From assembly GCA_964460115.1 (NCBI GenBank), contig CAYWPR010000001.1, positions 120,829 through 184,828 of the forward strand: 64,000 nucleotides of DNA, given 5' to 3'. The stretch comes from an uncultured Myxococcales bacterium (GTDB lineage Bacteria; Myxococcota_A; Polyangia; Palsa-1104; JAEUJZ01). Within the stretch, counting starts at the first letter, position 1, and every line of letters begins with the position of its first letter. The notes beneath the pieces are model-generated. The model had not been told where the DNA came from. It saw only the letters and a list, made by a program, of their open reading frames with translations, and searched no databases. Of this stretch, positions 2,819 to 64,000 are shown piece by piece. The translations under genes were made by a program, and so were the position numbers.

Positions 2819-2836
2819 GCTTGTTGGCTCAGGAAT

Positions 2837-4135: not shown

Positions 4136-4158
4136 TTACCCTTTAGACTAGGTTAACG

Positions 4159-36656: not shown

Positions 36657-37949
36657 ATGACGACATCCCGTTACCCTTGCCAGGGCGGTGTACCGCCGAT
36701 GCAGCAGTCGCCGGAAAAGCCGGCGCGCCGGCCGGTGCAGGTGCGCCGAGTCGATGAATGCCAGACGCTCGATGAACTATTTCGCAGTTGTCTGCCGGCT
36801 TTTGGCGGCGGCTTTTTGCGCCGAATCTATTCGATTCTGGACGAGGCGATCGGGGCCGGTTGTCCGCTGACCTTGGCCATTGCCGGGCCGGTGACCGTTT
36901 CTGGCCAGCATCAGGCCTGGCTGCTGCCGCTTTTAGAGACCGGATGGGTCGCCTACCTAAGCACCACCGACGCGGTGTGCTATCACGACGGGCACCGGGC
37001 GCTTGACGAGCATCAGCAGGATCCCATCTACGAAGTGCCGATCTTCGGGGACGACGGGGCCTTGCGCGAAGCGGGCACGATTCGCGTGACCGACATGGGT
37101 TTTGATGAACAGGTGCTGCTCGATCAGGATCGCTTTCTGACCGCCTGCCTGCTGCGTCCGGAATTTCAGAAAAAAATGACCGGCACCGAGCTGCGCCATT
37201 TGCTGGGCGGCCGCTATGCCGCGCAAGAGCAAAAAAACGGCTCGGCCGCGGGCTTGCTCAGCACTTGCCAGCGCTTGGCTGTGCCGATCTTTGTCGGAGC
37301 TCCCGGTGACGGCAGCGTATTTTTAAACGCCATGAAGCTGTGGGCGATGCAAAAAGCCGGTCTTTTGCCAGAACATCGCTTCGAACTGGACTGCCAAGCC
37401 GAGGTGTTTGAGTCCTGCGCCTATCACTACTGGGGGCTGTTTGAAAACTCGGCGCGCAGCCTGGCGACGCTGATTCTAGGTGGCGGCGTGCCCAAAAACT
37501 ATAACCTGCAGCCCGAGCCGGCGCTGTCGCAAGTACTGGGTCTACAGGAAGTGCGCGGCTATATGTTTGACGTACAAATCGTCAGCGCACCGATTACCGA
37601 CGGCTCGCTGTCGTCCTGCCCGCCGGCCGAGGCGGTCACCTGGGGCAAGGTGGACAAAGACGTTTACCCGTACACCACGGAAAGCATGCAGGCCGACTAC
37701 TCGATGGTGATGCCGTTTTTGGTAAAAGCGCTGCTCGAAAACCGCGCGCGCTATGCCCGCTGGGCTGAAAAAATGGGCGAAGAAGCGCTGTATGCGCAGC
37801 ACCCCAAGGCGCGCGGCTATTTGCGATCTCAAGGCGGCTATAGGCTGTTCGAAAAGCGCGAAGAACTGACGCAAAAGCTGCTTGTGGCGGTGCGCAATAA
37901 TGCCGACTGGCTTTTGCCAACGCTGCGCTATCCGCTGGCTTCGGCCTAG
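36657..37949 (+). CDS. deoxyhypusine synthase (DHS)-like family protein
   Basis: LTLAIAGPVTVSGQHQAWLLPLLETGWVAYLSTTDAVCYHDGHRAL and VPIFVGAPGDGSVFLN resemble the DHS Rossmann/spermidine-site motifs. Assigned from remembered patterns only. Confidence 0.5.
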   Translation: MTTSRYPCQGGVPPMQQSPEKPARRPVQVRRVDECQTLDELFRSCLPAFGGGFLRRIYSILDEAIGAGCPLTLAIAGPVTVSGQHQAWLLPLLETGWVAYLSTTDAVCYHDGHRALDEHQQDPIYEVPIFGDDGALREAGTIRVTDMGFDEQVLLDQDRFLTACLLRPEFQKKMTGTELRHLLGGRYAAQEQKNGSAAGLLSTCQRLAVPIFVGAPGDGSVFLNAMKLWAMQKAGLLPEHRFELDCQAEVFESCAYHYWGLFENSARSLATLILGGGVPKNYNLQPEPALSQVLGLQEVRGYMFDVQIVSAPITDGSLSSCPPAEAVTWGKVDKDVYPYTTESMQADYSMVMPFLVKALLENRARYARWAEKMGEEALYAQHPKARGYLRSQGGYRLFEKREELTQKLLVAVRNNADWLLPTLRYPLASA

Positions 37950-38432: not shown

Positions 38433-39719
38433 CTAAGCAGTTTCTGACTGCAAGCGCGCGAGGATTTCGGCGGCGCGCTCGGCGCAGATGTCTTTGCTCG
38501 CAGACAGCTCTGCGGCGACGCGATCGACAAGCTCGCCGGTGGCTCCGGCGGCCACCGCTACCGATCGAGAATGCAGCGACATATGGCCGCGCTGAATGCC
38601 CTCGGTGGCTAGCGCGCGCAGAGCAGCCAGATTGCTGGCCAGTCCCGCCGCAGCCATGATCATGCCCAGTTCGCCGGCGTTTTTGACGCCGAGGATGCGC
38701 AGGCTCAGCCGAGCGCCCGGATGCACGCGCAACGTCCCGCCCACCGTGCCGACCGCCAGCGGCAGCTCTATTTGGCCCCTCAGACTGCCGTCTTCGGTGC
38801 GCCGCCAAACCGCCAGCGGCCGGTAGACGCCGCTGCGCGCCGCGTAGGCATGCGCCCCGGCTTCGACTCCGCGCCAATCGTTGCCGGTGGCGATCACCAC
38901 CGGATCGATGCCATTGAGGATTCCTTTGTTGTGGGTCGCGGCGCGGTAGGGATCAAGCTCGGCAAAACGGCTGGCGGCAACGATTCCTGCCAAAACCTCT
39001 TGGCCGTTGTAGCCGCCTCCGCCCAAAAGCCCAGAAGAGATCTGACACCAAACGCGTACCCGTCGGCGATCCGCCAAGTTCGAAAGGATGCGCAGGCCCA
39101 CCTGAGCACGCGCAAGCGCCGCCAAGCGACCGGCCACGGCCTCGGCCATGGTGTTGACCAGGTTTGCGCCCATGGCGTTGCCGCAGTCGGCAATAATGTG
39201 CACCACCAGCATTCCTGGTTCCAGCACTCGCACTTCCAGTTCGCGCGCTCCGCCGCCGTGCCGTACAAGTCCTGGACAAGCGGCATTGCAGGTGGCCAAA
39301 AGCTCGGTTTGTGCTTCTACAATCGCGACACTGGCAGCCTCTATATCGGGCACGTTGCACAGTTGCACCTGCCCAAGCATCAGCGGCGGATCGGCTTCGG
39401 CATGAAAGCCGCCGCCCTCGCGCACCATGCGCGCGGCATTCGAGGCCGCGGCAATGACCGATGGCTCTTCGACGCACATCGGAACCAAATAATCGTGGCC
39501 GTTCACCTGAAAATTCAGGCCGAGGCCCAAAGGCAGCGTATAGGTGCCGATGACGTTTTCGACTATATGGTTGGCCGCGTCCACGCTCAGGCCGCCGGAA
39601 CACAGCCGCTCGCATTCTTCCGGGGTCAATCCGGCGCGCTGCAAAAGCTGGTGCCGCTCATCGAGCGTGAACCGATAGAAGCCGGGAATGCGTGAACTAT
39701 CGACGCGGGTGCTCTTCAT
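38433..39719 (-). CDS. mvaA: hydroxymethylglutaryl-CoA reductase, class II (428 aa)
   Basis: ENVIGTYTLPLGLGLNFQVNGHDYLVPMCVEEPSVIAAAS is the class II HMGR signature. 428 aa, as for P. mevalonii MvaA. Confidence 0.9.
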   Translation of the reverse strand: MKSTRVDSSRIPGFYRFTLDERHQLLQRAGLTPEECERLCSGGLSVDAANHIVENVIGTYTLPLGLGLNFQVNGHDYLVPMCVEEPSVIAAASNAARMVREGGGFHAEADPPLMLGQVQLCNVPDIEAASVAIVEAQTELLATCNAACPGLVRHGGGARELEVRVLEPGMLVVHIIADCGNAMGANLVNTMAEAVAGRLAALARAQVGLRILSNLADRRRVRVWCQISSGLLGGGGYNGQEVLAGIVAASRFAELDPYRAATHNKGILNGIDPVVIATGNDWRGVEAGAHAYAARSGVYRPLAVWRRTEDGSLRGQIELPLAVGTVGGTLRVHPGARLSLRILGVKNAGELGMIMAAAGLASNLAALRALATEGIQRGHMSLHSRSVAVAAGATGELVDRVAAELSASKDICAERAAEILARLQSETA

Positions 39720-39725
39720 GGGTTT

Positions 39726-40697
39726 TTACCGCGGGAAGCCGCCGACGTGGCATCCAGCCAAGCTAATCTGCAGAGGCAAAAGCTCGAGCTCGGCATACAC
39801 CGGACTGGAATTTGCGACAAGTCGCTGCTCCAGCGCCGCTGCTGCTTTGAGGTCGGGAAGAAACACAACCGCCAAGTCGCCGCCGCCAGCCCCCGACGGT
39901 TTGGCCACCCCTCCGACTTGTTTGGCAAGGTCGGCAATGGCCATATGCTCGGCGGTCAGCAATTCACAATTCAAAGCTTCCTGCAAAACGCGAAAAGCCG
40001 ACTGCGCTTCGGCGACCGCTTCCAGAATCTCGCCCGGCGCGGCCATGCGGCAGGCTTGCAGAAAGCGCTTTGCGGCTTGGCCCATGCGCGCCCGGCCCGA
40101 ATCAGCCGCTGCGCCGACGCTGCGATAGCGTTTGATAAGCGCCGCGGTCGAGGCACTGCGTCCGGTGGCAATAAAGCGCAGTTGCAACGGCGCAGGCAGT
40201 TGCAGCTCGTCTGGGCAATGGTCAAGGGCCGCGCCGCGGTTTTCCAAAGCGCGCAGCCCGCCAAAGGTCGATGCCAGCACATCGGCGCCGCTGCCTGGCT
40301 CGCCTTGCGCTATGTCGTGCGCGCGCCGCGCCGCCCGATGCAGCGCGATCAAGTGAGCCGCTGGCAAAAGATCGCGTCCAGCCGCGACAAAAAGCGCGCC
40401 GAGGGCGGCAACGGTCGCCGCGGCGCTGGAACCAAGCCCCAGTTTGCGTCCATTTGGCGCAAAAGCCGTGGTGTCCACAACCGGAACGGCGGACGGAGCA
40501 CTTGGGCCCAAACTCAAAAGCTCGATGCGCGCTTGCTCTAGAGCGGCGCGAATAAAATCAGACGCGGGGCTGGCGTTTTCATGAAGCTGCGCCACGGCGT
40601 AGCGATTCACCGCCGCGACGACTGCGGAGCTTCCGTCTAAAACCGCGTACTCGCCAATCAGCATGGCTTTGCCTGGGGCTAAAATCGCCAGGCTCAC
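39726..40697 (-). CDS. phosphomevalonate kinase (GHMP kinase)
   Basis: N-terminal APGKAMLIGEYAVLDG (PMK-type) and GHMP motif KLGLGSSAA. Confidence 0.8.
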   Translation of the reverse strand: MSLAILAPGKAMLIGEYAVLDGSSAVVAAVNRYAVAQLHENASPASDFIRAALEQARIELLSLGPSAPSAVPVVDTTAFAPNGRKLGLGSSAAATVAALGALFVAAGRDLLPAAHLIALHRAARRAHDIAQGEPGSGADVLASTFGGLRALENRGAALDHCPDELQLPAPLQLRFIATGRSASTAALIKRYRSVGAAADSGRARMGQAAKRFLQACRMAAPGEILEAVAEAQSAFRVLQEALNCELLTAEHMAIADLAKQVGGVAKPSGAGGGDLAVVFLPDLKAAAALEQRLVANSSPVYAELELLPLQISLAGCHVGGFPR

Positions 40698-41719
40698 GAC
40701 AACGCCTCTTTGCCATCGCTCAAAATCTTCGCGCCGCTGCCTGGACGCGCAACGATCGTACGCAAAACCCCAGGAAGCGCGGCCAGCGCCGCGGCCACAG
40801 CATCGGCATCGGCGGCGGTCGTCAGGGCTTTGGGATGCGGTCCGGCATCGCAGGTAAAAAAAGCGCCGATTCCACGCCGGCGCAAGGCCCGTAGGGTGTG
40901 CAGTCCTTCCAGGGTGGCGCCGCGCAAGTACACAACGCCCGGATCAGCAGCCAGGGCCGAAGCGTGCATGCGCAGGGCGCTGCGCTCGGCCACAAGACCC
41001 AGGCGTTCCAAATCGCGTGCCTTTACAGCGGCTATCGCCTCCGCCAAATCGGCGGGAGCGGCCGCGACAAAAGACGCATAGTAGGGCGAAGTGGCCGCGG
41101 TGTGGCGCATTCCATCTGTAGAGGCCGTTTCCTTGGCCTGCTCGGTAGCCACGCCGATGACCAGGCGCAAATCCGACCAGTCATCGGCGGCGCACATCGG
41201 AACGGCGCGCGCCGAGTCCACTTGGCCGGGCGTGCCGGTGCCAAGGACGACCAGTCCGCCATACAGCGAACGGGCGGCCGAACCCGAGCCCTGCCGCGCC
41301 CAGATCGAAAGCCGGCAGCGCCAAGGCTCATCAAGCTGCCAACCCGGCGCTTGCAAAGCTGCGGTAGCGGCTACGGTAAGCGCCGCAAATGCCGAGGCCG
41401 AAGATGCCAGCCCAGCCGCCGTGGGGAAATTATTGTGGCTGCGTACTTCGGCGGGCAAGCGCGCCGGGATGGCCAAGGCGTGCGCAATGCGATCGAGGTG
41501 ACGCGACACTTTTCGCAGCGATTCGCCGTTTTGCGCCGTGCCGTTTAAGAAAAATCGATCGGCCAAAAGCGCACTGTCGAATGAAACTTCGGTGCGCGTG
41601 CGCAGTCCATCGAGCGTCAGCGACAAGCTAGGAACCGCCGGCAGATTTAGCGCCTCGTCATTTTTGCCCCAGTATTTGACCAGGGCAATGTTGGTGTTGG
41701 CTTCGGCGGCGGATTTCAT
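40694..41719 (-). CDS. mvaD: diphosphomevalonate decarboxylase
   Basis: NIALVKYWGKNDEALNLPAVPSLSLTL and the GLASSAS GHMP motif. Confidence 0.9.
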   Translation of the reverse strand: MKSAAEANTNIALVKYWGKNDEALNLPAVPSLSLTLDGLRTRTEVSFDSALLADRFFLNGTAQNGESLRKVSRHLDRIAHALAIPARLPAEVRSHNNFPTAAGLASSASAFAALTVAATAALQAPGWQLDEPWRCRLSIWARQGSGSAARSLYGGLVVLGTGTPGQVDSARAVPMCAADDWSDLRLVIGVATEQAKETASTDGMRHTAATSPYYASFVAAAPADLAEAIAAVKARDLERLGLVAERSALRMHASALAADPGVVYLRGATLEGLHTLRALRRRGIGAFFTCDAGPHPKALTTAADADAVAAALAALPGVLRTIVARPGSGAKILSDGKEALS

Positions 41720-42717
41720 CTGGTTCCTATTTGCACTTTGAAGCTTTGGTAGCCGGCTTTTTGCCAGGCCGCTTGGACCGCGGCTTCATTTTCAGGGGCC
41801 AGCGCGACCACACAGCCACCGCCGCCCCCGCCCGTCAGCTTGGCGCCAAGTGCGCCAGCGTCTCGCGCCAAGGCACACATGTGTTCGATCTCGAGACAGG
41901 AGACCTCCAGCGCCAAAAGCTCGGCCTGATTGCCGTTCATGGCGCTTCCCAGGGCGTAAAGGTCTCCGCAGCGCAGCGCCAAGGCGGCTTGTTCGACAAG
42001 CTCGGCAATGCGTGAAAAGCGCGCGGTCGTGCCCGCTTTGTCCTGCTTTTGCAGAAGCGCGACGTGCGCCACGCGGCCCTTGGTGTCGCGAACGCGTCCG
42101 GTGTGCCCGACCAGCACGGAAAGCGGCAGGAGGCTTTGCGGCACTTCTAGAAGTGGGGTCAAGCCGTGGCCGCGACGAAAAAGTCCAAAACCGCCGTGCT
42201 GCGCCAGGGCTTGATCCAGACCGGAAGATTGGCCGTGAAAAATCTGCTCGGCGGCAAAGACCGCGGCGTCTACCTGCTGCGAATGTAGATTCAGGTTCAG
42301 CGCCTGATTCAGGCAGCGCACCACGGCAACCGCCAGGGCCGCCGAACTGCCGAGCCCGGCACCAGTGGGAATGGCAAAGTGGACGATCAAATCGTAGGGC
42401 AAAAAAAACCGCTCTTGCGCACAGCCGGCCAAAAGCGAGCGCAAAATGGCTTGGTACGCAGCAGACAGTGGGCTATCCGCTGCGGCGGAGGCGTCAAGCA
42501 GTTCAGTGGCCGTGGCCGTGGCCACCTGCCAAGCCGGTACGCACAGGCGCCCAGCTCCGCGTACAGCCTGCACCGTGGCGCCGCGTTCCAAAGCCCCACA
42601 CAAAGCGGCTACGCCGTACACCACGGCATGTTCGCCAAGCAAGATGACCTTGCCGCAGGCGGTAGACTCCGCAACGATCTGTTGCGGTAGATCCTCAAGC
42701 GCAAGGGGGTTCATCAA
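41716..42717 (-). CDS. mvk: mevalonate kinase
   Basis: GKVILLGEHAVVYG and PTGAGLGSSAA GHMP motifs. Confidence 0.9.
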   Translation of the reverse strand: MMNPLALEDLPQQIVAESTACGKVILLGEHAVVYGVAALCGALERGATVQAVRGAGRLCVPAWQVATATATELLDASAAADSPLSAAYQAILRSLLAGCAQERFFLPYDLIVHFAIPTGAGLGSSAALAVAVVRCLNQALNLNLHSQQVDAAVFAAEQIFHGQSSGLDQALAQHGGFGLFRRGHGLTPLLEVPQSLLPLSVLVGHTGRVRDTKGRVAHVALLQKQDKAGTTARFSRIAELVEQAALALRCGDLYALGSAMNGNQAELLALEVSCLEIEHMCALARDAGALGAKLTGGGGGGCVVALAPENEAAVQAAWQKAGYQSFKVQIGTR

Positions 42718-43814
42718 AACGCACGATCCTGGCGTGCTTCTTCCAGCCAGGCCCGCAGCGCTTGGCCCAGCACGCGCGGCGCATAACGCAGCTCTTGGGA
42801 GCTGCGGCAGCCGGCCAAAAAGGTGATGGCGCGCAAGGTTTCAATGACTTGGGTCAAAAAGCGAATGACGCCATCGTAACCGCCGGACTTATGGGCGCGC
42901 AGCACCGGTGCTGCCAAGCCGCCGGCCGTGGCCCCGAGCGCCAGCGCATTTGCCACATCGGTGCCGCTGCGCAAACCGCCCGTTGCAATAATGGTCAGAT
43001 CGAGGTCGGCAAGCAGCCCAATCGATGCCGCCGTCGGAATGCCCCAATCCCAAAGTTCGTCGCCAAGCAGCTTGGCTGGACCTTCGGCGCGTTTGGTCTC
43101 GACGCCGACCCAGGAAGTGCCGCCGGCGCCGCTGACATCGACAGCATGTATGCCCAGGGAAGAAACCAGCTTGCCGACCCGGCGCGACAGGCCGCATCCG
43201 GTCTCTTTGACGACAATGGGCACGCCAAGCTCGCCGTGAAGCTGCGCCAGGGTTTCGCGCCCATGCCGAAAATCGCGATCGCCGCCCGGCTGTATCAGCT
43301 CCATCGCTGGATTTAAATGTACACACAGCGCATCGGCGCCGACCGCCTGCACCAATTGGCGCAGTTCGGCGGTACGCATATCGCGCGCTTGCACCAGGCC
43401 AATGTTGCCTAGAAGTAGCGCTGTCGGTGCAACATCGCGTACCTCGTAAGTGCGTGCACTTTCGGGTCGCACAAGCATGGCCCGCTGTGAACCCAAGCCA
43501 AAGCCAATGCCCAGCGTCTCGGCAGCACGCGCCAGATCGCGATTTATGGACTGTGCTTCATCGGTACCGCCGGTCATTCCGCTAATCACAAGCGGTGCCT
43601 GCAGCACTTTGCCCAAAAGCGGGGTTTGCAGATCGACATCGTCATAATGGCGATCGGGCAGCGCATCGTGGACAAGCTGTACTTGATCAAGGAGCGTGCC
43701 CTTGCCGCGAAACTCGGCTTCACCCGTCGAGCAAAGTGCAATGTGGTCGGATTTGCGTTGGCTAATCAGCGCCGGCGCCGCTGCCGGCACTGATATTGGT
43801 TGCGAATCGTCCAT
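42714..43814 (-). CDS. fni: isopentenyl-diphosphate delta-isomerase, type 2 (FMN-dependent)
   Basis: RKSDHIALC, the VKETGCGLS TIM-barrel motif and GAGGTSWVGVE. Confidence 0.9.
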   Translation of the reverse strand: MDDSQPISVPAAAPALISQRKSDHIALCSTGEAEFRGKGTLLDQVQLVHDALPDRHYDDVDLQTPLLGKVLQAPLVISGMTGGTDEAQSINRDLARAAETLGIGFGLGSQRAMLVRPESARTYEVRDVAPTALLLGNIGLVQARDMRTAELRQLVQAVGADALCVHLNPAMELIQPGGDRDFRHGRETLAQLHGELGVPIVVKETGCGLSRRVGKLVSSLGIHAVDVSGAGGTSWVGVETKRAEGPAKLLGDELWDWGIPTAASIGLLADLDLTIIATGGLRSGTDVANALALGATAGGLAAPVLRAHKSGGYDGVIRFLTQVIETLRAITFLAGCRSSQELRYAPRVLGQALRAWLEEARQDRAF

Positions 43815-53585: not shown

Positions 53586-55025
53586 TTAAAACGCCACCTG
53601 CGCTTGTAGTTTCAGCGCGTTGTCATCGGGCAAAGTTTCCAAAGCGACTTGTCCGGAACGCAAGCGCACACGCGCGCCATAGTCATAGTGGGAGTACTGA
53701 ATGAATATCTGCGCGCCCAGCAGCCAGTTGACGGTCACGCCGATGCGCGGACTGTAGACGCGAAACGCCGAAGCTTGATCCTGTACATCGGCAATGACGC
53801 GATCGTATCGCAAAGCGACAAATAGGAATGACAACGGCTGAATCAAAAGCTCGGTCCCCCATTTGAAACTCAGTCGGCCGTCGCGGTTGATGGCGGGATC
53901 CTCGTCAACTTGTTTGCTTAAGGTGTATGCCGTCAAAGCAAAAAGTTTCAGTGCCAGTTCACCTCCATGCAAAATGGGCAAGCGCCCTGCGGCCCGCCGA
54001 GCCAAAAGAGTGCGCAGGCTGAATGTGTACTCGCCAGCGAGGTTCCACAGGCTGCCGACGCCATCGCTTTTTTCGACGCCCAAGTAGTTTTCCTGCAAAC
54101 CGCGACCGCCATAGGCATGCATGACTTCCAGCACCGGACTTAGATATTGCGCCTGCGCCGCGGTGATGATGGAACCGCCGAGATAAGCGCGACCAAGCCA
54201 CGTCAAAAGTTGAACGTCAAGCCCAACGACGCGCATGCCGGCATCCTTTAATTCCTTAAGCTGGCGCTGATCATGCGATTGCGCATCGAGAAAATAAAAT
54301 CCGACTTGCGCCACTTTGCGAATGTCCACTCCGGCATGCAGATAGTTCAGCAAAGTCAGGCCTTGATTGGAATCAATGGCCTCTTGATGCACGCCTATGC
54401 CCTGTAGCAGCCAAAACATAAGTCCGGTGCTGTGCGGTTCAAATTCCAGCCGCACTTGCCCGCCCATCTGATGGGTGCGAGCAAACAAATAGGTGTCGTA
54501 ATTTTCAAGCCAGCCAAACCGGTCCCAAAATGATCCGGCGCGCACGTGCATTGCAAAGCGCAGCCGCGGACCGTCCGCGGCAAAATGAAATGTCAGATAG
54601 GCCTGGGCGATGCCCCACTGACGGTCTAACAAAGGCCGGGCCCAGTCGGAATACAAAGAGCCCATCAGCGCAACCGTTCCCTCTAGATGCTGGTTGCCGA
54701 GGTTAAAATACAGTTCCGACCAATCGGATTCCTGAAGCCGCGTGTACAGGAATCCCGAGCGAAAATAGTCATCGTCAACGAGCCAAGGGCTGTGAATGTC
54801 ATAGCCGAATTGGCCCGTAGCCGAATTGTCGCCGCGGCTGCGCAGCGCCAGCCGCAAAGGCGCGCGAAAATAGCCGCTGGCGCGAAGCTGCAGCGGTCCA
54901 AGCATCAATCCGAAGCCGGGGCGCGGCAATTCTTGCGCAAAGGATCGCGCCGGAGCGCAAATGCCAAGCAGCAGACAAGCCATCCCCATCGAAATCGAAA
55001 TTTGCCAAGCCGTCTTAGGCTTCAT
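53586..55025 (-). CDS. outer-membrane beta-barrel porin-like protein; signal peptide starts at the Met near 55025, ORF track extends to 55139
   Basis: Signal peptide MKPKTAWQISISMGMACLLLGICAPARSFAQE. Aromatic-rich amphipathic strands. C-terminal ...LQAQVAF (terminal Phe). Confidence 0.6.
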   Translation of the reverse strand: MKPKTAWQISISMGMACLLLGICAPARSFAQELPRPGFGLMLGPLQLRASGYFRAPLRLALRSRGDNSATGQFGYDIHSPWLVDDDYFRSGFLYTRLQESDWSELYFNLGNQHLEGTVALMGSLYSDWARPLLDRQWGIAQAYLTFHFAADGPRLRFAMHVRAGSFWDRFGWLENYDTYLFARTHQMGGQVRLEFEPHSTGLMFWLLQGIGVHQEAIDSNQGLTLLNYLHAGVDIRKVAQVGFYFLDAQSHDQRQLKELKDAGMRVVGLDVQLLTWLGRAYLGGSIITAAQAQYLSPVLEVMHAYGGRGLQENYLGVEKSDGVGSLWNLAGEYTFSLRTLLARRAAGRLPILHGGELALKLFALTAYTLSKQVDEDPAINRDGRLSFKWGTELLIQPLSFLFVALRYDRVIADVQDQASAFRVYSPRIGVTVNWLLGAQIFIQYSHYDYGARVRLRSGQVALETLPDDNALKLQAQVAF

Positions 55026-57340
55026 CGCGGTCTCCGCCCAAGTCCCGACAATGTACGGCGATGCAAAAGTGTCAGCAGGATTGTCAGCGAAATCAGCGTC
55101 CAAAATGGTACGCGCGCAGAGGGCGCATGCATTTGGCACAGACAGGCATTTTCATAAGGAAAACTTGCTGGATCGGAATTCGCGGAGTTGTCATTTTTGC
55201 CGCCGTTTTCGCCATCGCGAGCGCACACGTAAGGACGACCGCTTGACTGGTTGCCGGCTCCGTCTCCGCAGTGATTGGGTTCAATCAGGCCCGAGCGGTC
55301 CAAAAGAGTCAGCACATAAGCGCCACCGCCATAGCCCACCATGGGAATGCTTCCGGTGTACTTTCCAATGGCCCCATCGGCGCGCACCGCGTTGTAAAGC
55401 TCGGGCAATAAATAAAAATTAGCGGCGGCTTTGTCGACGACAAGTTGCAGCAGGTTTTGGCTGCTTGATTCGCGAGAGGCGCGCCAAAACGCATCGGACA
55501 TGCGCAAGTCGATGAGAATCCATTCATTGTTGTCATAACTCGACAGACCATCGTCGTTGCGCTTAAAGCCGCCGCTGTCTATGCGCAATCGCTCTAGCAA
55601 ATCGAGGCTGGCTTGACTGCTGCGTCCGGCGTACTCCTTGTCGGAAAGGATGTTCCAGGTAAATGCTTCGACGACCGCCGCGTCCAAATACTGATTGATG
55701 CCAAGCTCTTCTATCGATCCGGCAATGGCGCCGTTCTGATCGAGAAAAAGATTCCAAAAGGCGCTGCGCGCTTTTTGCGACAGGTTGGAGTAACTAGTCA
55801 CCGTGTCGTTACGGCCTAGGATTTTGGCCGTTGCCGCCAAATCGCAAAAGCCGCGAATGGCCGCCAGCGTCGTGTAGGCATAATGCTTTTTGTTTTGCTG
55901 ATGCACTTCCCAAATCGAAGAGTCTTCTTGCACCACGCCGCTTGTTTCCAAATTGGCGCTTAGCGGCTGCGCCACGCCGCTTAGGATGGTGTCCCAAACG
56001 CTGACACCGCTTGGCAAACGGCTGCTTAACCAAGCGACGTCGGACGACGCTTCGATGTATTGTCGAACTCCCCACAGAAACATGCCCCAACCGTCGAGTT
56101 CAATGTTCGGAGTCGGCTGTCCGGAATAATCGGCCTCTTCCTCGCCGTTGCCGAAGTAGCGCACAACGGAAATGCGATAGTCGGTGTTTTTGACAAAAGA
56201 CTTGAACTTGCCGACTGGACCGGCGTTTAGAAAAAATTCCAAAGCCATTTTCGCTTCGTCAAAATGGCCCATGCGCGCCAGTGCAACGATGGCGTACATG
56301 GCATCGCGCACCCAGCCGGTGTGCCATTCGCCGACCGGCAGACTGGCCAACATCATTCCATGGTTTTTGCGCGTGGCGGTGTACGGCTCGCGCACTTGGC
56401 CCATGCGCAAAATGGCTTCGCTTTGTTGCCAAAGACGTTTTTCGTCATCGCTGCACAGCGCCAAAGTCGCTGGCGGCGGCTTGCGCCAGGTTCGCCATTC
56501 GGCAAGCGCGGTCTGCAAAAGCTCGGGCGGCGCGCGGTTTCCAACAAAATTGCGCAGCGACTGCGCCGCCGTAGCGGCAGCGCTGGAATTTTCGACGTAA
56601 ATCATGGCGACGGCAAACCAGCCGTCCATAAGCTCTGCCTGAAACGCCGGCACGATGTTGTCGCCAGTGCATTCCGGATGATCGACCAGCGGCTGACCGT
56701 TTTTGACTTTGTTATAGACATCCTGACAATCGGCATATCGAAGCGGCGTCAGCGGCAGATAAACCATGGCCCCGCCGCCGGGTCCGGTCTCGACGAAAAA
56801 CGGAGTTTCGGAAGTGTCGCGGCGCAGAGATTCGCCACTTGTGTCGGGTTGGCCAGAAACGACTGCGCCCATGTGAAAGTTAAACAGCGCAAATCCATCG
56901 CTGGCGGCTGGCGCGTGCAATAGCGCGAGCATGGCGTTGCCCTCATACCCAAATGGCGCAAAATAGTAAGTATCTGCCGAAATTCCGGCCAAATTCACCG
57001 GAGCTCGAATGATATTTGTCTGCTCTACATATTCGGGCTCACCAGCCGTGCCCTCGCTAAGCCAGCCGCTGCCGCCAGACGTGCGCAGTCCGAAATAAAA
57101 ATCGTAAAGCAAATTGCGCCGCCCGACGCCGTCGCCGCTGGGATCGGCACTTGGACGAAGATAGCGATAAGGATGTTCCAGAAAATAGGTCAGCTTGTTT
57201 TGGCTTAGATCGTAGACTTGAAAACCGTGACCATTGCCGGTGGTCAGGTAACTCCAAGTGCGCGACGTTTTTGCACATTGCCCAGCGCTGGCAAACGCAA
57301 TCACGCCCAAAAGCGCCGTAACCAAGCAGCCTCGAATCAT
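55022..57340 (-). CDS. secreted glycoside hydrolase family 15-like (glucoamylase/glucodextranase/trehalase-like (alpha/alpha)6 barrel) with C-terminal Cys + TM + basic tail
   Basis: Signal peptide present. HTGWVRDAMYAIVALARMGHFDEAKMALEFF, DGWGMFLWG and NEWILIDLRMSDAFW are typical of GH15-like catalytic domains. C-terminal ...CLCQMHAPSARVPFWTLISLTILLTLLHRRTLSGLGRRPR. Confidence 0.65.
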   Translation of the reverse strand: MIRGCLVTALLGVIAFASAGQCAKTSRTWSYLTTGNGHGFQVYDLSQNKLTYFLEHPYRYLRPSADPSGDGVGRRNLLYDFYFGLRTSGGSGWLSEGTAGEPEYVEQTNIIRAPVNLAGISADTYYFAPFGYEGNAMLALLHAPAASDGFALFNFHMGAVVSGQPDTSGESLRRDTSETPFFVETGPGGGAMVYLPLTPLRYADCQDVYNKVKNGQPLVDHPECTGDNIVPAFQAELMDGWFAVAMIYVENSSAAATAAQSLRNFVGNRAPPELLQTALAEWRTWRKPPPATLALCSDDEKRLWQQSEAILRMGQVREPYTATRKNHGMMLASLPVGEWHTGWVRDAMYAIVALARMGHFDEAKMALEFFLNAGPVGKFKSFVKNTDYRISVVRYFGNGEEEADYSGQPTPNIELDGWGMFLWGVRQYIEASSDVAWLSSRLPSGVSVWDTILSGVAQPLSANLETSGVVQEDSSIWEVHQQNKKHYAYTTLAAIRGFCDLAATAKILGRNDTVTSYSNLSQKARSAFWNLFLDQNGAIAGSIEELGINQYLDAAVVEAFTWNILSDKEYAGRSSQASLDLLERLRIDSGGFKRNDDGLSSYDNNEWILIDLRMSDAFWRASRESSSQNLLQLVVDKAAANFYLLPELYNAVRADGAIGKYTGSIPMVGYGGGAYVLTLLDRSGLIEPNHCGDGAGNQSSGRPYVCARDGENGGKNDNSANSDPASFPYENACLCQMHAPSARVPFWTLISLTILLTLLHRRTLSGLGRRPR

Positions 57341-57366: not shown

Positions 57367-58764
57367 TTAGGATGTCAACGCCGTCGAAAACGGCGCAGCA
57401 TGCTCGGCCGTCGCGGATTTTTCATCCGATTCGTTGTCATCGAAGGCTTCCAGCCGGTCGAGCAGCGCCGCGGGAAGTTCCCTTTTGCCTTTGACGCCAA
57501 GTTGCCGCAATGCCTCGGCCCGTTTTTTCAAATTGCCGCGGCCGGTGTGCAGGCGTTTCAAAGTGTCCTCAAAGGCGATTTGCGCCTGGCCAAGGTGCCG
57601 TCCAAGCGCAAGCAGCGATTCCAGCGACAAGGCCATTTGATCCCACAGCTCGGCAGCGCGGCGGGCGATTTCTTCGGCGTTTTTGCTTTGTCGCTCGACG
57701 CGCCAGATTCCTTCAATGGTTCGCAAAGTCGCCAGCAAAGTACTAGGCCCGACGATGATGATCTTACGACGGTAGGCATCGGTAAAAAGTGCGGAATCCT
57801 GTTGCAGGACAAGCAGCAGCGCCGGTTCAATCGGCACAAATAGGAGTACGAAGTCAATGGCTTGTCCGGCCAGCAAAGCCGCATAATCCTTTTCCGCCAA
57901 ATCGCTGATGTGGCCGCGCAGCGAACTGATATGCGCTGAAACTGCGGCTTGGCGCACCGCATCATCTTCGCTGCTGCAGTATTCCAAATAGGCATTTAGC
58001 GAGACTTTGGAATCAATAATCACATCGCGCTTGTCGGGAAGGTGAATGATGACATCGGGCACGCGACGCTTTCCGTCGTCGCTGCGCAATGATTTTTGCA
58101 ATTCATATTCGGTGCCGTGCACAAGTCCCGAAGCTTCCAGCAAAGTGGTCAAAGTTTGCTCGCCCCAAGCTCCGCGTAGTTGACTTTGGCCTTTTAAAGC
58201 CTGCGTCAGATTCAAAGCTTGCTGTCCCAAAGTTTGATTCAGATGTTGCAACTGCTGAACCTGCGCCAAAAGCAGACTGCGATCTTTGGAATCCTGCAAA
58301 TAGACTCCTTCGACGGTCTTTTTGAAGTCGAAAAGTTGCTCGCGCAAGGGAGTCAAAGTGGCATCGAAAAGCTTTTGCGAATGCTGGCTAAGTTTCTCGG
58401 TTTTCTCTTCAAAAATTTGCTGCGAAAGCTGTTTGAATTCGGCGCGCAATTCGCTGCGCGCATCGCTGAGCAAGCGCATCCGTTCGCCCTCAAAATGCTG
58501 CGCCTCGGTCGCTTGGGTTTTTTGCGCAACTAGCTCTAGCTCGACTTCGCGCAGCCGAGCCAAAAGCTGTTGCGCATGTGCTTCCTGATTCTGAATATGC
58601 TGACGCAGCCGCGCAATTTCGCGCTCTTGTTCCAGTTGCAGAGTTTGCAGGGTCGCTTGCTGGCTGGCGACTTGAATGCGTTCCAGGTTGCGACCCACGA
58701 AAAACCCAAGGGCGCAAGCTACGCCGCAAGCAAGAATCAGCAACAAGATCGCAGAGGTGGCCAT
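57367..58764 (-). CDS. rmuC: DNA recombination protein RmuC
   Basis: N-terminal TM helix, long coiled coil, then LRGAWGEQTLTTLLEASGL...PDVIIHLPDKRDVIIDSKVSL. Confidence 0.85.
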   Translation of the reverse strand: MATSAILLLILACGVACALGFFVGRNLERIQVASQQATLQTLQLEQEREIARLRQHIQNQEAHAQQLLARLREVELELVAQKTQATEAQHFEGERMRLLSDARSELRAEFKQLSQQIFEEKTEKLSQHSQKLFDATLTPLREQLFDFKKTVEGVYLQDSKDRSLLLAQVQQLQHLNQTLGQQALNLTQALKGQSQLRGAWGEQTLTTLLEASGLVHGTEYELQKSLRSDDGKRRVPDVIIHLPDKRDVIIDSKVSLNAYLEYCSSEDDAVRQAAVSAHISSLRGHISDLAEKDYAALLAGQAIDFVLLFVPIEPALLLVLQQDSALFTDAYRRKIIIVGPSTLLATLRTIEGIWRVERQSKNAEEIARRAAELWDQMALSLESLLALGRHLGQAQIAFEDTLKRLHTGRGNLKKRAEALRQLGVKGKRELPAALLDRLEAFDDNESDEKSATAEHAAPFSTALTS

Positions 58765-58810
58765 TGGCTGTGCTGCTTATAGCAGGTGCCAATGACAAGC
58801 GCTTTGCGAA

Positions 58811-59173
58811 TCAGGACTTGGGAACAAAGCGCATCGACAGCGAATTGACGCAGTGACGCGTATTTTTTGCGGTCAGGCGTTCGCCGACAAATACGTGTCC
58901 AAGGTGTCCGCTGCACGCGGCACATTGAATTTCGACGCGCCGACCATCGGCGTCGGGCAACTGTTTCACGGCGCCGGAAATCGCGGCGTCAAAACTCGGC
59001 CAACCGCAGCCGCTTTTAAACTTGCTGTCCGATTGATAAAGTGGGGCGTTGCAGCGCCGGCAAATATACGTTCCTTCGACGTAGAAATCATCGTATTCGC
59101 CGCTATAGGGCCGCTCGGTCCCTTTGTCTTCGATGATGTGCTTCTCGATAGCCGTTAGCTTGTTCCACGCCAT
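58811..59173 (-). CDS. msrB: peptide-methionine (R)-S-oxide reductase
   Basis: CxxC...CxxC zinc site, GCGWPSF and RHCVNS catalytic Cys. Confidence 0.9.
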
Positions 59174-59220
59174 GGCGCAATTTTGGTACGAAAGCGCCGT
59201 CTAGACAAGTCGCGAGCCGC

Positions 59221-60810
59221 TTAGGGTTGCAAGTACGCGTCGGGCGCGTTCATTTTTGGCGCCAGAATCAAACCAATCGAGGGATGAAAGCGCGGGCGCA
59301 AAAGATGCATGGTCTTCGGCCAGGTTTTTAAAACCAGCGCCGGCTTCAGATAGAAAAAGCGCAGCCCCTCGCGCCAGGCGGCGGCGCGAAAAAGCTGCCC
59401 ATCCTGCGCCAAAAAACCGAGCATTCCGTACAGCGTCAAAAGCGCGATAAGCTGCACTCCGATAAATATTCCCAAAAGCCGTACGGCATAGCTGCCGCAC
59501 ACATCTTGAAATACATCGAAGGCGACCGCGCGGTGCTCGAGCTCTTCATAACAGTGCCATTCGATCATTTGCCGCGCCGCCGAATCGAGGTCGTGCAAAA
59601 TTCCGTCAAACAGCACGGCTTCGGCGACACAAGCGGTAAAATGCTCGATGGCGACGGTCACCGCCATATTCAGGTTGGGACTAAGCAGCCGCGGCAGGAC
59701 AGTCTGGCCGATCCACCGACATAGACGATCCAAGCGCTCCAGACGATATCCCAAGCGGTGCAGTTGCGTCGAAAAGCGCCGATGTTCGGCGGCGTGGTGC
59801 GCTTCCTGATCTACAAACCAATCGGTTTGCTCGCGCAAAAGCGGCGTGCTCAGTCGGTTTTTGACGCGGCGTATGTTGGCAATCATGTAGCGCTCGCCGT
59901 GAGCGACAACAATGTGCAAAGCGTTGACGAAATGATTTTTCACCGGGTGGCGCAGAAAATTCGCACGCTCTAGCTGACATATGTCTTGTGGGTTTGGAGG
60001 TCCCGCCCACTCGGGCGCAAACGATAGCACTTTGGTCACAGGCTGGGTCTTAGCGCCGCCGCGCAGAAGCGCCAGAACCACCGGAATGCCCATTCCCAAA
60101 AGGGCACCCATGCGCACCGCAAACATTCCAATCGCGACATAGTATAAAGCCACTGCGCCATAGGCCAAAGTCGGCCAAATTCCATCTTTGTCGAGCTGGT
60201 GGCTTTTGGGAAAAAGGACCGCATCAAAGATTGCGACGACGAGGGAACTGCCCAAAAACCACGCCGCGTAGTTTTCAATCGGAACTTGTGACCATGCTGG
60301 AGTGCCGCTCGTCCAGCGCCATAGTCCCACGGCGACCGCCGTTGGATCCATGGCTGTATCCCAAGCGGTCATGCAAAGGCCGCCGATGGCTGCGACCAAA
60401 ATTCGCGGCAGGATGCGCCCCGCGTGCTGGCCGACGATGCGCCGCGCCATCACATAGCTTGGGTACATCATCATAAACCACATGCACGGAACGACGAGCA
60501 TCACGAAGTTTGGCGGCAGCGGAGCCCAGCGCGACGGCACGTAGGAATAGTGCGCCCCAAAAAGTCCAAAATGCGTTCCCCAAAGCTCGGCGCTTAGCGT
60601 AATGACGTAGGTCAGGGCAAAAAGCAGCGCTGCGCGTTTGCGGCCAAAACGCAGCGTCGCGGAACTCAAGCTAAAGGGCAAAAGAAAAACATAAACAAAG
60701 GGCGGTCCATTTTCGGAAATGATGCGCAGGACTCCCAGCATCAACGCAAAAAGGTGCAGCCCCCAAAAAAGGACGACGAGCCGACGAAGCTGTGGCGTAG
60801 TCACGGACAT
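59221..60810 (-). CDS. fusion protein: N-terminal carotenoid-biosynthesis-type membrane domain (DUF422/PF04240-like) + C-terminal predicted metal-dependent hydrolase (PF10118-like)
   Basis: The N-terminal half is polytopic membrane (VPCMWFMMMYPSYV...). The C-terminal half has HHAAEHRRF...EHFTACVAE...WHCYEELEHRAVAFDVFQDV, a His/Glu-rich four-helix-bundle motif typical of PF10118. Confidence 0.55.
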   Translation of the reverse strand: MSVTTPQLRRLVVLFWGLHLFALMLGVLRIISENGPPFVYVFLLPFSLSSATLRFGRKRAALLFALTYVITLSAELWGTHFGLFGAHYSYVPSRWAPLPPNFVMLVVPCMWFMMMYPSYVMARRIVGQHAGRILPRILVAAIGGLCMTAWDTAMDPTAVAVGLWRWTSGTPAWSQVPIENYAAWFLGSSLVVAIFDAVLFPKSHQLDKDGIWPTLAYGAVALYYVAIGMFAVRMGALLGMGIPVVLALLRGGAKTQPVTKVLSFAPEWAGPPNPQDICQLERANFLRHPVKNHFVNALHIVVAHGERYMIANIRRVKNRLSTPLLREQTDWFVDQEAHHAAEHRRFSTQLHRLGYRLERLDRLCRWIGQTVLPRLLSPNLNMAVTVAIEHFTACVAEAVLFDGILHDLDSAARQMIEWHCYEELEHRAVAFDVFQDVCGSYAVRLLGIFIGVQLIALLTLYGMLGFLAQDGQLFRAAAWREGLRFFYLKPALVLKTWPKTMHLLRPRFHPSIGLILAPKMNAPDAYLQP

Positions 60811-61922
60811 TCCTTTTTCGCCGGGCCCGGTGCGTGAAAACTGGCATAGGCAAAGCCCTCGTTCTTGGTGTACCAGTCCTGCCAGCGCTCGATGGAATTG
60901 TAGGTGGAAGCCACTTGCTTATAGCGCTGCACCCAGCTTGCATAGCCCTTGTGCACGGCCAGAGGCAGATCATTTTGCTGCGCATAGGCCAAAAGCGCCG
61001 GGCGCAGCATTTGCGAAAGCGCCGGCAAATCCCATCGCGACACTTGCGGATATAAATGATGCTCGATGTGATAGTTCAGATTGCAGATCAAAAACGCCAG
61101 CAGTCGATTGGTCTGAAAGGTTCTGGTCACGCAGATCTGGCGCTGCAAATACGGCAAATCGGACAGTCGAAAAGGAATCATCAGCGTATGCAGCGGCTTG
61201 GCCGATTTGTAGACAATGGCCAGTCCGGCAATCGCCGGCAGCACAAATGCGCACAAAAGCACTCGCAGATAAGCGCCGCGCTGCACTAGATAAAAAGTCA
61301 GCGGCCCCCAGACCACCAGCATCAGGGCCACATCGATGAGCGTATTTTGCAAAAGCGCTCGATCGGAATTGCCCACATTGCTCGCGCTGCCCGTATTGGC
61401 TGTACTTTTCGCATTGCTCAGGCACTGATTTCGCACCCAGCGGCCAAACTGCCCAAGCTGTAGGATCCATGTATATAGGAATGCATCGCCTGGGCTGTTG
61501 GCGATGCGCGCCAGCAGTCGGCCGGTCGGACGGAGGCCGGCATCTTCAAAGCTCAGGTGCAAAGCTTCCGGATCGTCTTCGACCAGTCCGGAACGGCGAT
61601 GATGCTGCAGGTGTTCGGCGCGCAAAAAATGAAACGGACAGCCGTAGTATGCACCGATGAGGCGCGCCACCCAGGTCTCTAGGCGGCGGTTGCCAAAAGC
61701 CGACTGGTGCATACAGTCATGAAACAGCAAAATCGCGTGTATATTTACCACGATCAAAAGCACCGTGCCGAGTAGCATGTACAGGGTTTTAGAAGCCGTC
61801 AGCACGCAATGAAAGCCAAACAAAAAGGAGCCCAGCAAGGCGCAGTCGTAAAGCAGCTCAAGACCGCGGCGCGGTTTATAGCGCAGACGCGGCAAGAGGG
61901 CCTCGGCTTCCAATTTCCTCAT
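60801..61922 (-). CDS. fatty acid desaturase family membrane protein (three His-boxes)
   Basis: HDCMH, HLQHHR and HIEHH boxes with polytopic TM topology. Confidence 0.8.
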   Translation of the reverse strand: MRKLEAEALLPRLRYKPRRGLELLYDCALLGSFLFGFHCVLTASKTLYMLLGTVLLIVVNIHAILLFHDCMHQSAFGNRRLETWVARLIGAYYGCPFHFLRAEHLQHHRRSGLVEDDPEALHLSFEDAGLRPTGRLLARIANSPGDAFLYTWILQLGQFGRWVRNQCLSNAKSTANTGSASNVGNSDRALLQNTLIDVALMLVVWGPLTFYLVQRGAYLRVLLCAFVLPAIAGLAIVYKSAKPLHTLMIPFRLSDLPYLQRQICVTRTFQTNRLLAFLICNLNYHIEHHLYPQVSRWDLPALSQMLRPALLAYAQQNDLPLAVHKGYASWVQRYKQVASTYNSIERWQDWYTKNEGFAYASFHAPGPAKKECP

Positions 61923-61926
61923 GGCT

Positions 61927-63354
61927 TCATCTTTCTAGGCGCGCGATGTGCAGTTTTACGCCGTCGCGCGGCATAAGGGTCACAAGTGCCTGCGGCTTCA
62001 GCACAAAATTCGGGTCGGCGCGCAGAGTAAATTTGCGCAAAAGCACGGCCAGGACGGTCTTTATCCATAAGCGCGCCATGGGCTCGCCGATGCAGGCGCG
62101 CGGCTGAATTCCAAAGGGCAGATACGCGGTCGCAGCTTCGTCGGACAAATTGCCATCCAAAAAGCGCTGCGGAAAAAACTCTTGCGGCTGCGCAAAAAAA
62201 TGCGGATGGCGATGCGTCAAGTAGGGCATACAGACGACCACCGAGCCTTGCGGAATGACGCATCCGCTGATGACGTCGTCCTTTTGTACATCGCGCAAAA
62301 TGATGGGAACCGCCGGAAACAAACGCAGCGACTCTGCAATGACGGCATCTAGGTAGGTCAGGCGTCCCAAGGCCGCAAGGTCGATGGGAGCGCTGCCCAG
62401 TACGTTTTCAAGTTCCTGCCTTAGGTCCGCCTGCACGTCCGGATGCTGCGATAAAAGATGCGCCGTAAACGCCAGCGAGTTGCTGGTGGTGTCATAGCTG
62501 GCCAAAAAAAAGGTCATCGCTTCATCGCGGATTTGCCGCTGCACAGAAGCAAGTGCCGCGCGATCCGCAAATTCCTGCGCGTGCATGGCAAAAAGCCGCT
62601 GCAAAAAACCCGGCGGTTCTGAAGAAGCCGAGGCGCGACTTTGCAAAAGGACATCCGCGAGCATTTCGTCCAAATTCGCAACAGCGCGGCGCAGCCGGCG
62701 ATTGGCCGGCATCGGCAGCCACAACGGCAACCGAACGAGCGCCGTCATGCGTTTTATCACCGCGGTCGAGGCCTGCAAAAGGGCGGCATCTAGCTCATGG
62801 CTGCGCGCGCTGGCGTCGATGCCAACCAGCGCCGAACTGGCGATGCGCAAAGTCAATTGCGCAAAATCTTGCGAAACCAGGCGCGGGCACTCCGCAACGC
62901 CGTGCAGCTTCGCGGTCCAGATTTCGGCAAGCGAATCGGCCGCGCGCGCCACCAGCGCCACATCCGCCTGCGCTGCCCGCGTCGTAAAAGCTGCGGCCAA
63001 GCGCCGACGCTGGGTCACCCAGGCGTCTTCGGATGCGGTCAAAAGTCCGTTGCCTATAAGCAGCCGCAATTCATCAAATGAGCGCCCCTTGTCGAAGTTT
63101 TTGCGACGGTCTTTAAACACATGACGCAGCGCCTGTGGATGTACCAAAATGAAATAGTCGCGAAACAGGGATAAGCGGACGATATCGCCGTATTGCTGAA
63201 ATAGCGCCGAAAGCTCGCCCAGCGGATCAGCGTGCAGCCGAGGCAGGCGCCGCAAAAGCTCGCTGCGGGTGGGGCCGGGTGCCGATCGCCGAAGGTCGCG
63301 CATGGTATGAAACTGCGCCCACGGGCGCAGCGGCCCACCATTGACCACATCCAC
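61927..63354 (-). CDS. cytochrome P450
   Basis: Heme-thiolate loop FGIQPRACIGEPMA and ExxR (ESLR). About 475 aa. Confidence 0.9.
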   Translation of the reverse strand: MDVVNGGPLRPWAQFHTMRDLRRSAPGPTRSELLRRLPRLHADPLGELSALFQQYGDIVRLSLFRDYFILVHPQALRHVFKDRRKNFDKGRSFDELRLLIGNGLLTASEDAWVTQRRRLAAAFTTRAAQADVALVARAADSLAEIWTAKLHGVAECPRLVSQDFAQLTLRIASSALVGIDASARSHELDAALLQASTAVIKRMTALVRLPLWLPMPANRRLRRAVANLDEMLADVLLQSRASASSEPPGFLQRLFAMHAQEFADRAALASVQRQIRDEAMTFFLASYDTTSNSLAFTAHLLSQHPDVQADLRQELENVLGSAPIDLAALGRLTYLDAVIAESLRLFPAVPIILRDVQKDDVISGCVIPQGSVVVCMPYLTHRHPHFFAQPQEFFPQRFLDGNLSDEAATAYLPFGIQPRACIGEPMARLWIKTVLAVLLRKFTLRADPNFVLKPQALVTLMPRDGVKLHIARLER

Positions 63355-63592
63355 CTAGATGGCGTCAAGCCCTTTTCTGGCTTGGCAAAGCGCCTTTCGG
63401 ATTTCGCGCCAGTGGCGCTACCGCCATATGCACCAAACTCGCATAGGCGTTTTGCAGAATGATTGACGCTTCGATTTGTTGAAAAGAGGCCAATAGCGCT
63501 GCTTATTTGACAGCTTGCACAGGCTCGATACGCTGCCCCAAATGTGGGCCCAGGCGCACAGAATCATGAATTTGGCCACCCGGGCCTTGGCA

Positions 63593-64000
63593 ATGTCGTT
63601 TTTCCTTTGGTTTGGCGGGCTTTGCGGCTGTGACCGCTATTCCGGGACAGTTCTGGCGCTGTCTATGGTTTGCCCGCAGGAAGTTTGCCAACCCGCCACG
63701 CCGCTGCCGCCAACTGCCCATCTCGAGCTATGGGCCAACGTCAACCGCGACGGAGTTCCTTTATACCTGCGGCTGCCGGCGCAAGTCGGCAGCGGTGATC
63801 CGGCGGCATTTAGCGGCTTTTCAGTGGTGCCGGCGGTCGATCCCAATGATCCCTGTTTAATACGCGGCCTCGATCGCGACGATCAAGTTTGCGCCAACGC
63901 CGAGGCCAAAACGCCCGAGGTCTGCGGCACGCAGCTCTTCAGCAAACCGGCGCAAATCGTGCCCGATGGCAGCACTGCGGACCTGGCCCAGCTTGGGCTG
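63593..64000 (+). CDS. possible lipoprotein, 5' partial-window ORF (runs off the 3' end of the window)
   Basis: ATG followed by MSFFLWFGGLCGC (a lipobox-like LCGC). Open frame of 136 codons to the window end with GC3-rich codons. Not in the ORF track because no stop is reached. Confidence 0.3.
   Translation, partial: MSFFLWFGGLCGCDRYSGTVLALSMVCPQEVCQPATPLPPTAHLELWANVNRDGVPLYLRLPAQVGSGDPAAFSGFSVVPAVDPNDPCLIRGLDRDDQVCANAEAKTPEVCGTQLFSKPAQIVPDGSTADLAQLGL

Follow-up and report, generated by a model that had tools for sequence, protein, structure and literature searches.

The oxygenation of acyclic carotenoid ends has been described as a route in which CruF hydrates the end group, CrtD carries out a 3,4-desaturation and CrtA-OH oxygenates C-2; the characterised CruF relatives add water across the C-1,2 double bond at the tip of such ends (PMC11855829). 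We analysed a 64,000-nucleotide (nt) stretch of DNA, called the window below, from an uncultured Myxococcales bacterium (contig CAYWPR010000001.1 of assembly GCA_964460115.1, positions 120,829-184,828), in which a cassette of three genes encodes a cytochrome P450, a membrane enzyme with histidine (His) boxes and a protein that fuses a CruF-like membrane domain to a domain of family PF10118. For comparison, the Deinococcus carotenoid pathway makes additional use of a P450, CYP287A1. The cassette resembles the CruF/CrtD/CrtA route in its parts, an oxygenase, a P450 and a desaturase-type enzyme that accompany a CruF-family membrane domain, and in its chemical logic, by which a single hydrophobic end group would be hydrated, desaturated and oxygenated (PMC11855829). 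It differs from that route in its partners, which are not homologous: a His-box di-iron enzyme takes the place of the flavin adenine dinucleotide-dependent CrtD, and that of the heme protein CrtA is taken by a ferritin-like di-iron domain. Moreover, its hydratase-like domain is fused to the oxygenase, stays below the CruF equivalog thresholds and has no crt linkage. We conclude that the cassette very probably is an oxidative lipid-tailoring unit in which the PF10118 domain acts as a di-iron oxygenase and not as a hydrolase. More tentatively, and with slightly less than even confidence, we propose that its substrate is a membrane isoprenoid, most likely a carotenoid, whose end is acyclic and of the lycopene type. 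A role in tailoring lipids or carotenoids had been suggested in an initial annotation of the region and is reasonable in the light of our results.

Four genes lie in one direction on the minus strand (58811-63354), in the order P450, His-box enzyme, fusion and msrB. This arrangement, together with the coordinates and junctions given in the initial annotation, was confirmed from the sequence, and its domain calls (PF04240, PF10118, PF00487 and P450) all scored above the Pfam cut-offs. The P450 gene comes first in the cassette (61927..63354) and encodes 475 amino acids (aa) from a GTG at 63354. Between its TGA stop and the ATG of the His-box enzyme gene (60801..61922, 373 aa) lie 4 nt, AGCC; the stop of the His-box enzyme gene shares a 10-nt overlap, ATGTCCGTGA, with the start of the fusion gene (59221..60810, 529 aa). 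The public gene calls place the P450 start at an ATG at 63303 (458 aa) and the fusion start at an ATG at 60741 (506 aa), so that the overlap with the desaturase gene disappears. The long fusion start at 60810 is better supported, because relatives keep an N-terminal membrane helix that only this start includes; an alternative GTG at 60804 would give a GTGA overlap of 4 nt, as is typical in relatives. The catalytic motifs are intact in all three cassette genes, and the P450, the desaturase and the fusion appear, from these junctions, to be one translationally coupled unit. The cassette encodes three types of O2-activating metalloenzyme, namely a heme-thiolate, a membrane His-box di-iron and a predicted carboxylate-bridged di-iron enzyme.

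The fusion had been called unusual, and it proved both unusual and genuine. Its reading frame is free of internal stops and is intact in about seven independent assemblies from JGI, ENA, NCBI and Logan, and its AlphaFold2 model reached a predicted local distance difference test score of 90.8 and a predicted template modelling score of 0.75. When 5.8 billion clustered proteins were searched by word index, only seven fused relatives came up, among them one identical protein and five with 57-61% identity (P0002-P0006). An exhaustive hidden Markov model (HMM) search of 1.84 billion representatives gave 4,505 matches, nearly all of them PF10118 proteins with a single domain and a length of about 270-300 aa; outside the fusion's own cluster, it added two distant CruF-like::PF10118 fusions, P0032 and P0033, at about 31-39% identity. 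Proteins with two tandem CruF domains were also found among the representatives from this search. A search of the PDB sequences with the fusion profile gave no matches. An assembly artefact, for instance a stop codon between the two halves, had been named in the initial annotation as a possible refutation; it was ruled out, since the fusion is intact across independent assemblies and several lineages.

The second half of the fusion (59278..59958, aa 285-511) matched PF10118 with an E value of 9e-58 and 196.3 bits (cut-off 33.2) over 227 of the 247 profile positions. Every one of the family's cluster representatives, which number more than 4,500, carries the annotation of a metal-dependent hydrolase, and the initial annotation had read the domain in the same way. 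This reading did not hold. The helical-bundle core superimposes on known ferritin-like di-iron carboxylate oxygenases, in agreement with Foldseek, and the domain presents the signature E ... ExxH ... E ... ExxH, in which the predicted metal ligands E306, E336xxH339, E389 and E423xxH426 show no variation or at least 90% conservation across 56-71 diverse members. Two extra histidines, H343 and H419, are invariant, the latter in the arrangement H419xxxE423xxH426; the ligand set of AurF also has an extra His, which the PF10118 residues recall. A hydrophobic helix spans aa 442-469. Structural neighbours of the domain include the fatty-acid-binding R2lox, aldehyde-deformylating oxygenase, acyl-acyl carrier protein (ACP) desaturase and UndA. 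Because of this fold and these ligands, redox chemistry is favoured over the label "predicted metal-dependent hydrolase", and the domain is best described, from its sequence and model, as a predicted ferritin-like di-iron carboxylate oxygenase of the AurF/CmlI/R2lox/COQ7 type. It differs from AurF/CmlI, R2lox and COQ7 in lacking significant sequence membership in those families and in its partners, a His-box enzyme and a polytopic membrane domain, to which it is tied by fusion or genomically. Pfam gave no AurF match to the domain. Searches for COG3687, K07044, PF04240 and 7WZL returned nothing useful from the literature.

The sequence search of the PDB with the domain profile bears on one rival explanation, in which the substrate is a polyprenylated quinone or a similar aromatic isoprenoid and the di-iron domain a COQ7-like ring hydroxylase. 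COQ7 was the only solved protein detected in this way; the match is weak (E 0.15), with the ExxH motifs in register. COQ9 presents the isoprenoid substrate to COQ7, and under this explanation the CruF-like domain and an SRPBCC protein would present the lipid as COQ9 and COQ10 do; indeed, an SRPBCC/START protein is translationally coupled to the cassette in two loci, L003 and L005. However, the score for the COQ7 family PF03232 is under its gathering cut-off (16.7 against 23.5), the invariant H343 and H419 resemble AurF/CmlI and not COQ7, no ubi or men genes lie nearby, and neither a His-box desaturase nor a CruF-like hydratase has a known role in quinone synthesis. We therefore regard a quinone substrate as improbable.

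The three cassette genes travel together. The succession P450-desaturase-fusion was present in all five lineages for which context was available (L003/L004, L005, the P0005 contig, the P0002 contig/L008 and the window), mostly with 4-nt overlaps at the junctions and with flanks that are unrelated between lineages. Two further, more distant lineages carry the desaturase followed by the fusion and have no P450. At three loci (L010, L017 and L018) the three domains are encoded by separate genes, with a divergent PF10118 gene, the desaturase and then a CruF-like gene, and L016 carries the desaturase/PF10118 pair. HMMs built from the alignments made in this analysis were scanned over all 87 retrieved loci, and the desaturase scores were bimodal, above 190 bits or below 80 bits. 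A PF10118 gene adjoined the high-scoring desaturase in 13 of 13 loci, whereas none of the approximately 70 loci with ordinary, low-scoring desaturases had a PF10118 or CruF-like neighbour. The core thus appears to be a dedicated desaturase subfamily, a CruF-like domain and PF10118, strongly co-inherited; from the synteny and the 87-locus scan, it follows that the P450 is an add-on and that msrB is incidental.

The His-box enzyme (PF00487, E 2.8e-30) has the three His boxes, four membrane helices and fold of the FA_desaturase family. It seems to belong to a distinct, rare and dedicated subfamily with its own motifs, DPEALH and KPLHT. Against the NCBIfam equivalogs it scored 35.1 bits for CrtW (cut-off 350), 27.9 for CrtR (475) and 38.9 for DesA (500), and these sub-threshold matches are local, around the His boxes only. 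It is distinguished from CrtW, CrtR, the acyl-lipid desaturases and AlkB by scoring only about 35-39 bits to any named family and by its constant pairing with PF10118.

The P450 (PF00067, E 1.5e-71, 242 bits against a cut-off of 22.8) is a soluble E-class protein, with no membrane anchor and with a complete heme-binding motif: the heme-Cys motif FGIQPRACIG is found at aa 414, ExxR at aa 341 and the I-helix motif ASYDTT at aa 285. Its closest solved relative is an unannotated bacterial P450, 7wzl (2e-55), followed by CYP97A3 LUT5 (3e-42), CYP97C1, CYP102 and CYP46A1. The alignment with CYP97A3 reached 148 bits with sparse identity and is clearly weaker than that with 7wzl. Like CYP97 and the CYP102/CYP4 clan the cassette P450 is of the E class, but it is soluble, bacterial and without a nearby redox partner, no gene for one being encoded in its vicinity. 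Its orthologues are confined to the five type-A loci and are 49-53% identical, above the 40% identity by which CYP families are delimited, which is why we assign the cassette P450s to their own CYP family; the P450 would accordingly be a lineage-specific addition to the core, made in one clade.

What the cassette acts on must be read mainly from the CruF-like half of the fusion (60046..60810, approximately aa 1-255), which we infer to be the only part carrying substrate information. It is a polytopic membrane domain of about seven helices that passes PF04240 (aa 51-250, E 1e-24, 88.1 bits against a cut-off of 25) with near full-length homology to CruF hydratases; a PDB sequence search with its profile found no matches. 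The domain appears to be a superfamily member and not an equivalog. It has invariant acidic residues, and we therefore argue that it is probably catalytic and not a mere anchor. All cassette enzymes would act on one hydrophobic, membrane-resident substrate. According to the mechanism that we propose, the CruF-like domain would bind the acyclic end within the membrane and probably hydrate its terminal double bond, and the hydrated end would be handed directly, as the isoprenoid substrate of COQ7 is by COQ9, to the di-iron site of the fused domain, which would oxygenate a neighbouring carbon. The His-box enzyme might then desaturate or ketolate the chain and the P450 might add a further hydroxyl, with electrons supplied by general ferredoxin systems encoded elsewhere. 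In this way the cassette would be a non-homologous counterpart of the CruF, CrtD and CrtA-OH end-group route.

The proposal of an isoprenoid, and most likely a carotenoid, substrate is based on the near full-length CruF homology of the fused domain, on the carotene hydroxylases CYP97A3 and CYP97C1 being the best annotated solved relatives of the P450, on the SRPBCC lipid-binding gene coupled downstream in two lineages, and on the myxobacterial host, whose mevalonate operon lies in the window. Nearly all myxobacteria are carotenogenic, and in the Sorangiineae and Nannocystineae the crt genes are scattered (PMC9304148). The genomic context is thus compatible with a carotenoid substrate without being compelling.

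Several observations weigh against this proposal. The CruF-like domain is far under all three CruF equivalog cut-offs (66.9 against 154.7 for NF045693, 47.1 against 400 for TIGR03460 and 43.8 against 300 for NF041333), and neither the cassette flanks in about ten lineages nor the 64-kb window contain crtB, crtI, crtE or a cyclase gene. The resemblance of the P450 to CYP97 appears to be at clan level only, and the His-box enzyme is as near to the fatty-acid desaturases (DesA) as to CrtW/CrtR. The searchable literature contains no experimental characterisation of any PF10118 member. Other PF10118 proteins are fused to domains that seem to point to fatty-acyl chemistry for the wider family. Finally, the reaction order and the individual regiochemistries are pure inference.

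Part of this evidence feeds a serious rival, in which the cassette modifies the fatty-acyl or alkyl chains of membrane lipids by desaturation and in-chain or terminal hydroxylation, or by oxidative chain conversion, the CruF-like domain being a lipid-binding membrane platform. PF00487 is primarily a fatty-acid desaturase family, and DesA was the top NCBIfam match in all 13 subfamily desaturases; the structural neighbours named above for the di-iron domain, from R2lox to UndA, fit this reading; the partners fused to other PF10118 proteins include an enoyl-coenzyme A (CoA) hydratase, a PapA_C-like acyltransferase and a flavin monooxygenase; and no crt genes are nearby. On the other hand, a CruF homologue whose invariant acidic residues are kept both in fused and in unfused form is hard to explain for straight acyl chains, and genes for acyl-CoA, ACP or phospholipid synthesis are not linked to the cassette either. 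Moreover, CrtW matched the desaturase subfamily as often as DesA did, so that the NCBIfam comparison of the 13 desaturases ends in a tie between fatty-acid and carotenoid enzymes. No orthologue was seen in a clearly fatty-acid context, which the initial annotation had named as the observation that would speak against carotenoids, and likewise none was seen in a carotenoid context. Taking both sides together, we consider modification of acyl chains unlikely, while treating it as a rival to be reckoned with.

The other PF10118 fusions, with flavin monooxygenase, enoyl-CoA hydratase and PapA_C-like acyltransferase, are represented, together with the tandem CruF proteins, by P0138, P0078, P0124, P0046 and P0150.

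The gene downstream of the cassette suggested yet another explanation, namely a four-gene operon responding to light or oxidative stress, in which msrB and a fusion with a metal-dependent hydrolase would take part. The msrB gene (58811..59173, minus strand) encodes a methionine-R-sulfoxide reductase (NF004036, 200.4 bits against a cut-off of 179). It is co-directional with the cassette and lies 47 nt downstream of the fusion gene; we found no convincing terminator between the two, and msrB may be co-transcribed in this genome. However, msrB does not adjoin the cassette in any other lineage, since msrB and rmuC follow it only in contigs of the same genome (L001 and L002); elsewhere the gene after the fusion is an SRPBCC gene or NAD_binding_10, or the contig ends. 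The stress operon is thereby largely refuted by synteny, and the supposed hydrolase has the fold and ligands of an oxygenase. The region upstream of the P450 (63355..63565), presumed to hold the cassette promoter, was delimited by a six-frame reading and the L001 gene calls; this divergent intergenic region measures 211-262 bp. Between 63290 and 63610 there was no sigma-70 match, no motif resembling those of extracytoplasmic function (ECF) sigma factors (GGAAC-N-CGT) and no CarH-type repeat (A..T..ACA), the promoter region matched no Rfam family, and the regions upstream of the P450 in four lineages had no k-mer in common. CarH-, ECF- or CarQ-like elements, and with them the light or oxidative-stress regulation put forward in the initial annotation, are thus without support, and the proposed link to oxidative repair through msrB fails with the synteny. 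We hold this explanation to be very improbable. Of the operon as first described, the three translationally coupled enzyme genes stand and msrB falls away; as candidate members of the module, msrB and rmuC were both rejected, given the different synteny in related lineages.

Every enzyme superfamily in the cassette is already known, oxidative tailoring clusters are ordinary, and the finding touches no major open question. What is new is a rare and strictly co-inherited trio, the CruF-like::di-iron fusion, and the recognition of PF10118 as a di-iron family of the oxygenase type. If our interpretation is correct, the PF10118 "hydrolase" family would have to be re-annotated as O2-activating di-iron enzymes, and the orphan PF10118 would gain a first functional handle in its obligate partnership with the His-box enzyme and the CruF-like domain. 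A hydratase-like membrane domain linked covalently to a di-iron oxygenase of the soluble type would be a natural way to present a membrane-embedded substrate, comparable to the part that COQ9 plays for COQ7, and a compact three-gene cassette with three types of oxygen-activating cofactor would be directly testable by heterologous expression in E. coli. One could go further and imagine that di-iron lipid oxygenases associated with membranes make up PF10118, a large family that would so far have escaped recognition as such. The cassette would then be an undescribed machine of a His-box enzyme, a CruF-like hydratase and a di-iron oxygenase, with or without a P450, in which non-homologous enzymes stand in for CrtD and CrtA; predatory Myxococcota, and a few lineages besides, would use it to make an oxidised isoprenoid or carotenoid that has yet to be described. 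This wider proposition is possible, although we would sooner expect it to fail than to hold.

Some further observations concern the relatives of the cassette. In L003 (11575..13478) and L005 (8805..9329), an SRPBCC (Polyketide_cyc2) gene follows the fusion with a 4-nt overlap, the two being 55% identical to each other. The L003 gene is followed in turn by a coupled gene for a 442-aa protein with no family assignment, and homologues of these L003 SRPBCC and 442-aa genes were not found in the window. P0035, a 415-aa desaturase/PF10118 chimera in L007, was rejected as a natural fusion, about 800 bp having been lost with respect to the syntenic L009; the deletion (L007 5017..6495 compared with L009 8001..10270) spans the 3' end of the desaturase and the CruF-like domain, and would mean that one lineage is losing the module, or else that the assembly collapsed. 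A gene for a 262-aa DUF4423 protein adjoins all three unfused modules (L010 6466..7254, L017 2074..2862 and L018 449..1237). This neighbour and the low guanine-plus-cytosine (GC) content of the contigs concerned (0.54) suggest a second host lineage for the module. Tandem PF10118 paralogues occur downstream of suf iron-sulphur assembly genes in several Chitinophagales/Sphingobacteriales assemblies, as for the two adjoining copies in the Chitinophagales metagenome-assembled genome (MAG) L011 (5083..6888), in a context that is otherwise uninformative.

Concerning the host, the GC content is about 0.55-0.58 in the cassette region (58500..63500) and 0.60 in the window, against 0.72-0.73 in the surroundings of the orthologous cassettes. 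The PurA protein of the window is 78-79% identical to PurA of Myxococcales MAGs, and the only match among species-representative genomes is a Haliangiales MAG, in keeping with the Myxococcales affiliation assumed in the initial annotation. The host is a Polyangia-type myxobacterium whose GC content is unusually low. The complete mevalonate-pathway operon (38433..43814, minus strand) lies at a distance of about 15 kb from the cassette, with 3-hydroxy-3-methylglutaryl-CoA reductase, two GHMP kinases, diphosphomevalonate decarboxylase and a flavin mononucleotide-dependent IDI2-like enzyme.

Downstream of msrB and on the same strand lie rmuC and then a GH15-like gene. The latter, within 53586..57340 (minus strand), encodes a 772-aa protein with a weak GH15 match (21.3 against the Pfam cut-off of 22), and its 3' end overlaps a 517-aa open reading frame of no family by about 118 nt. 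On the other side of the cassette, a lipoprotein-like gene on the plus strand (63566..64000, continuing in L001 at 2610..4747) encodes a signal peptide ending in LCGC and has no Pfam family; it is followed by genes for a 348-aa unknown protein and a TonB-dependent receptor. Elsewhere the window encodes a Ser/Thr kinase fused to a receiver domain (14375..15682, minus strand), an FHIPEP export protein of the FlhA/SctV type (34178..36037, plus strand) and a deoxyhypusine-synthase-like protein (36657..37949, plus strand).

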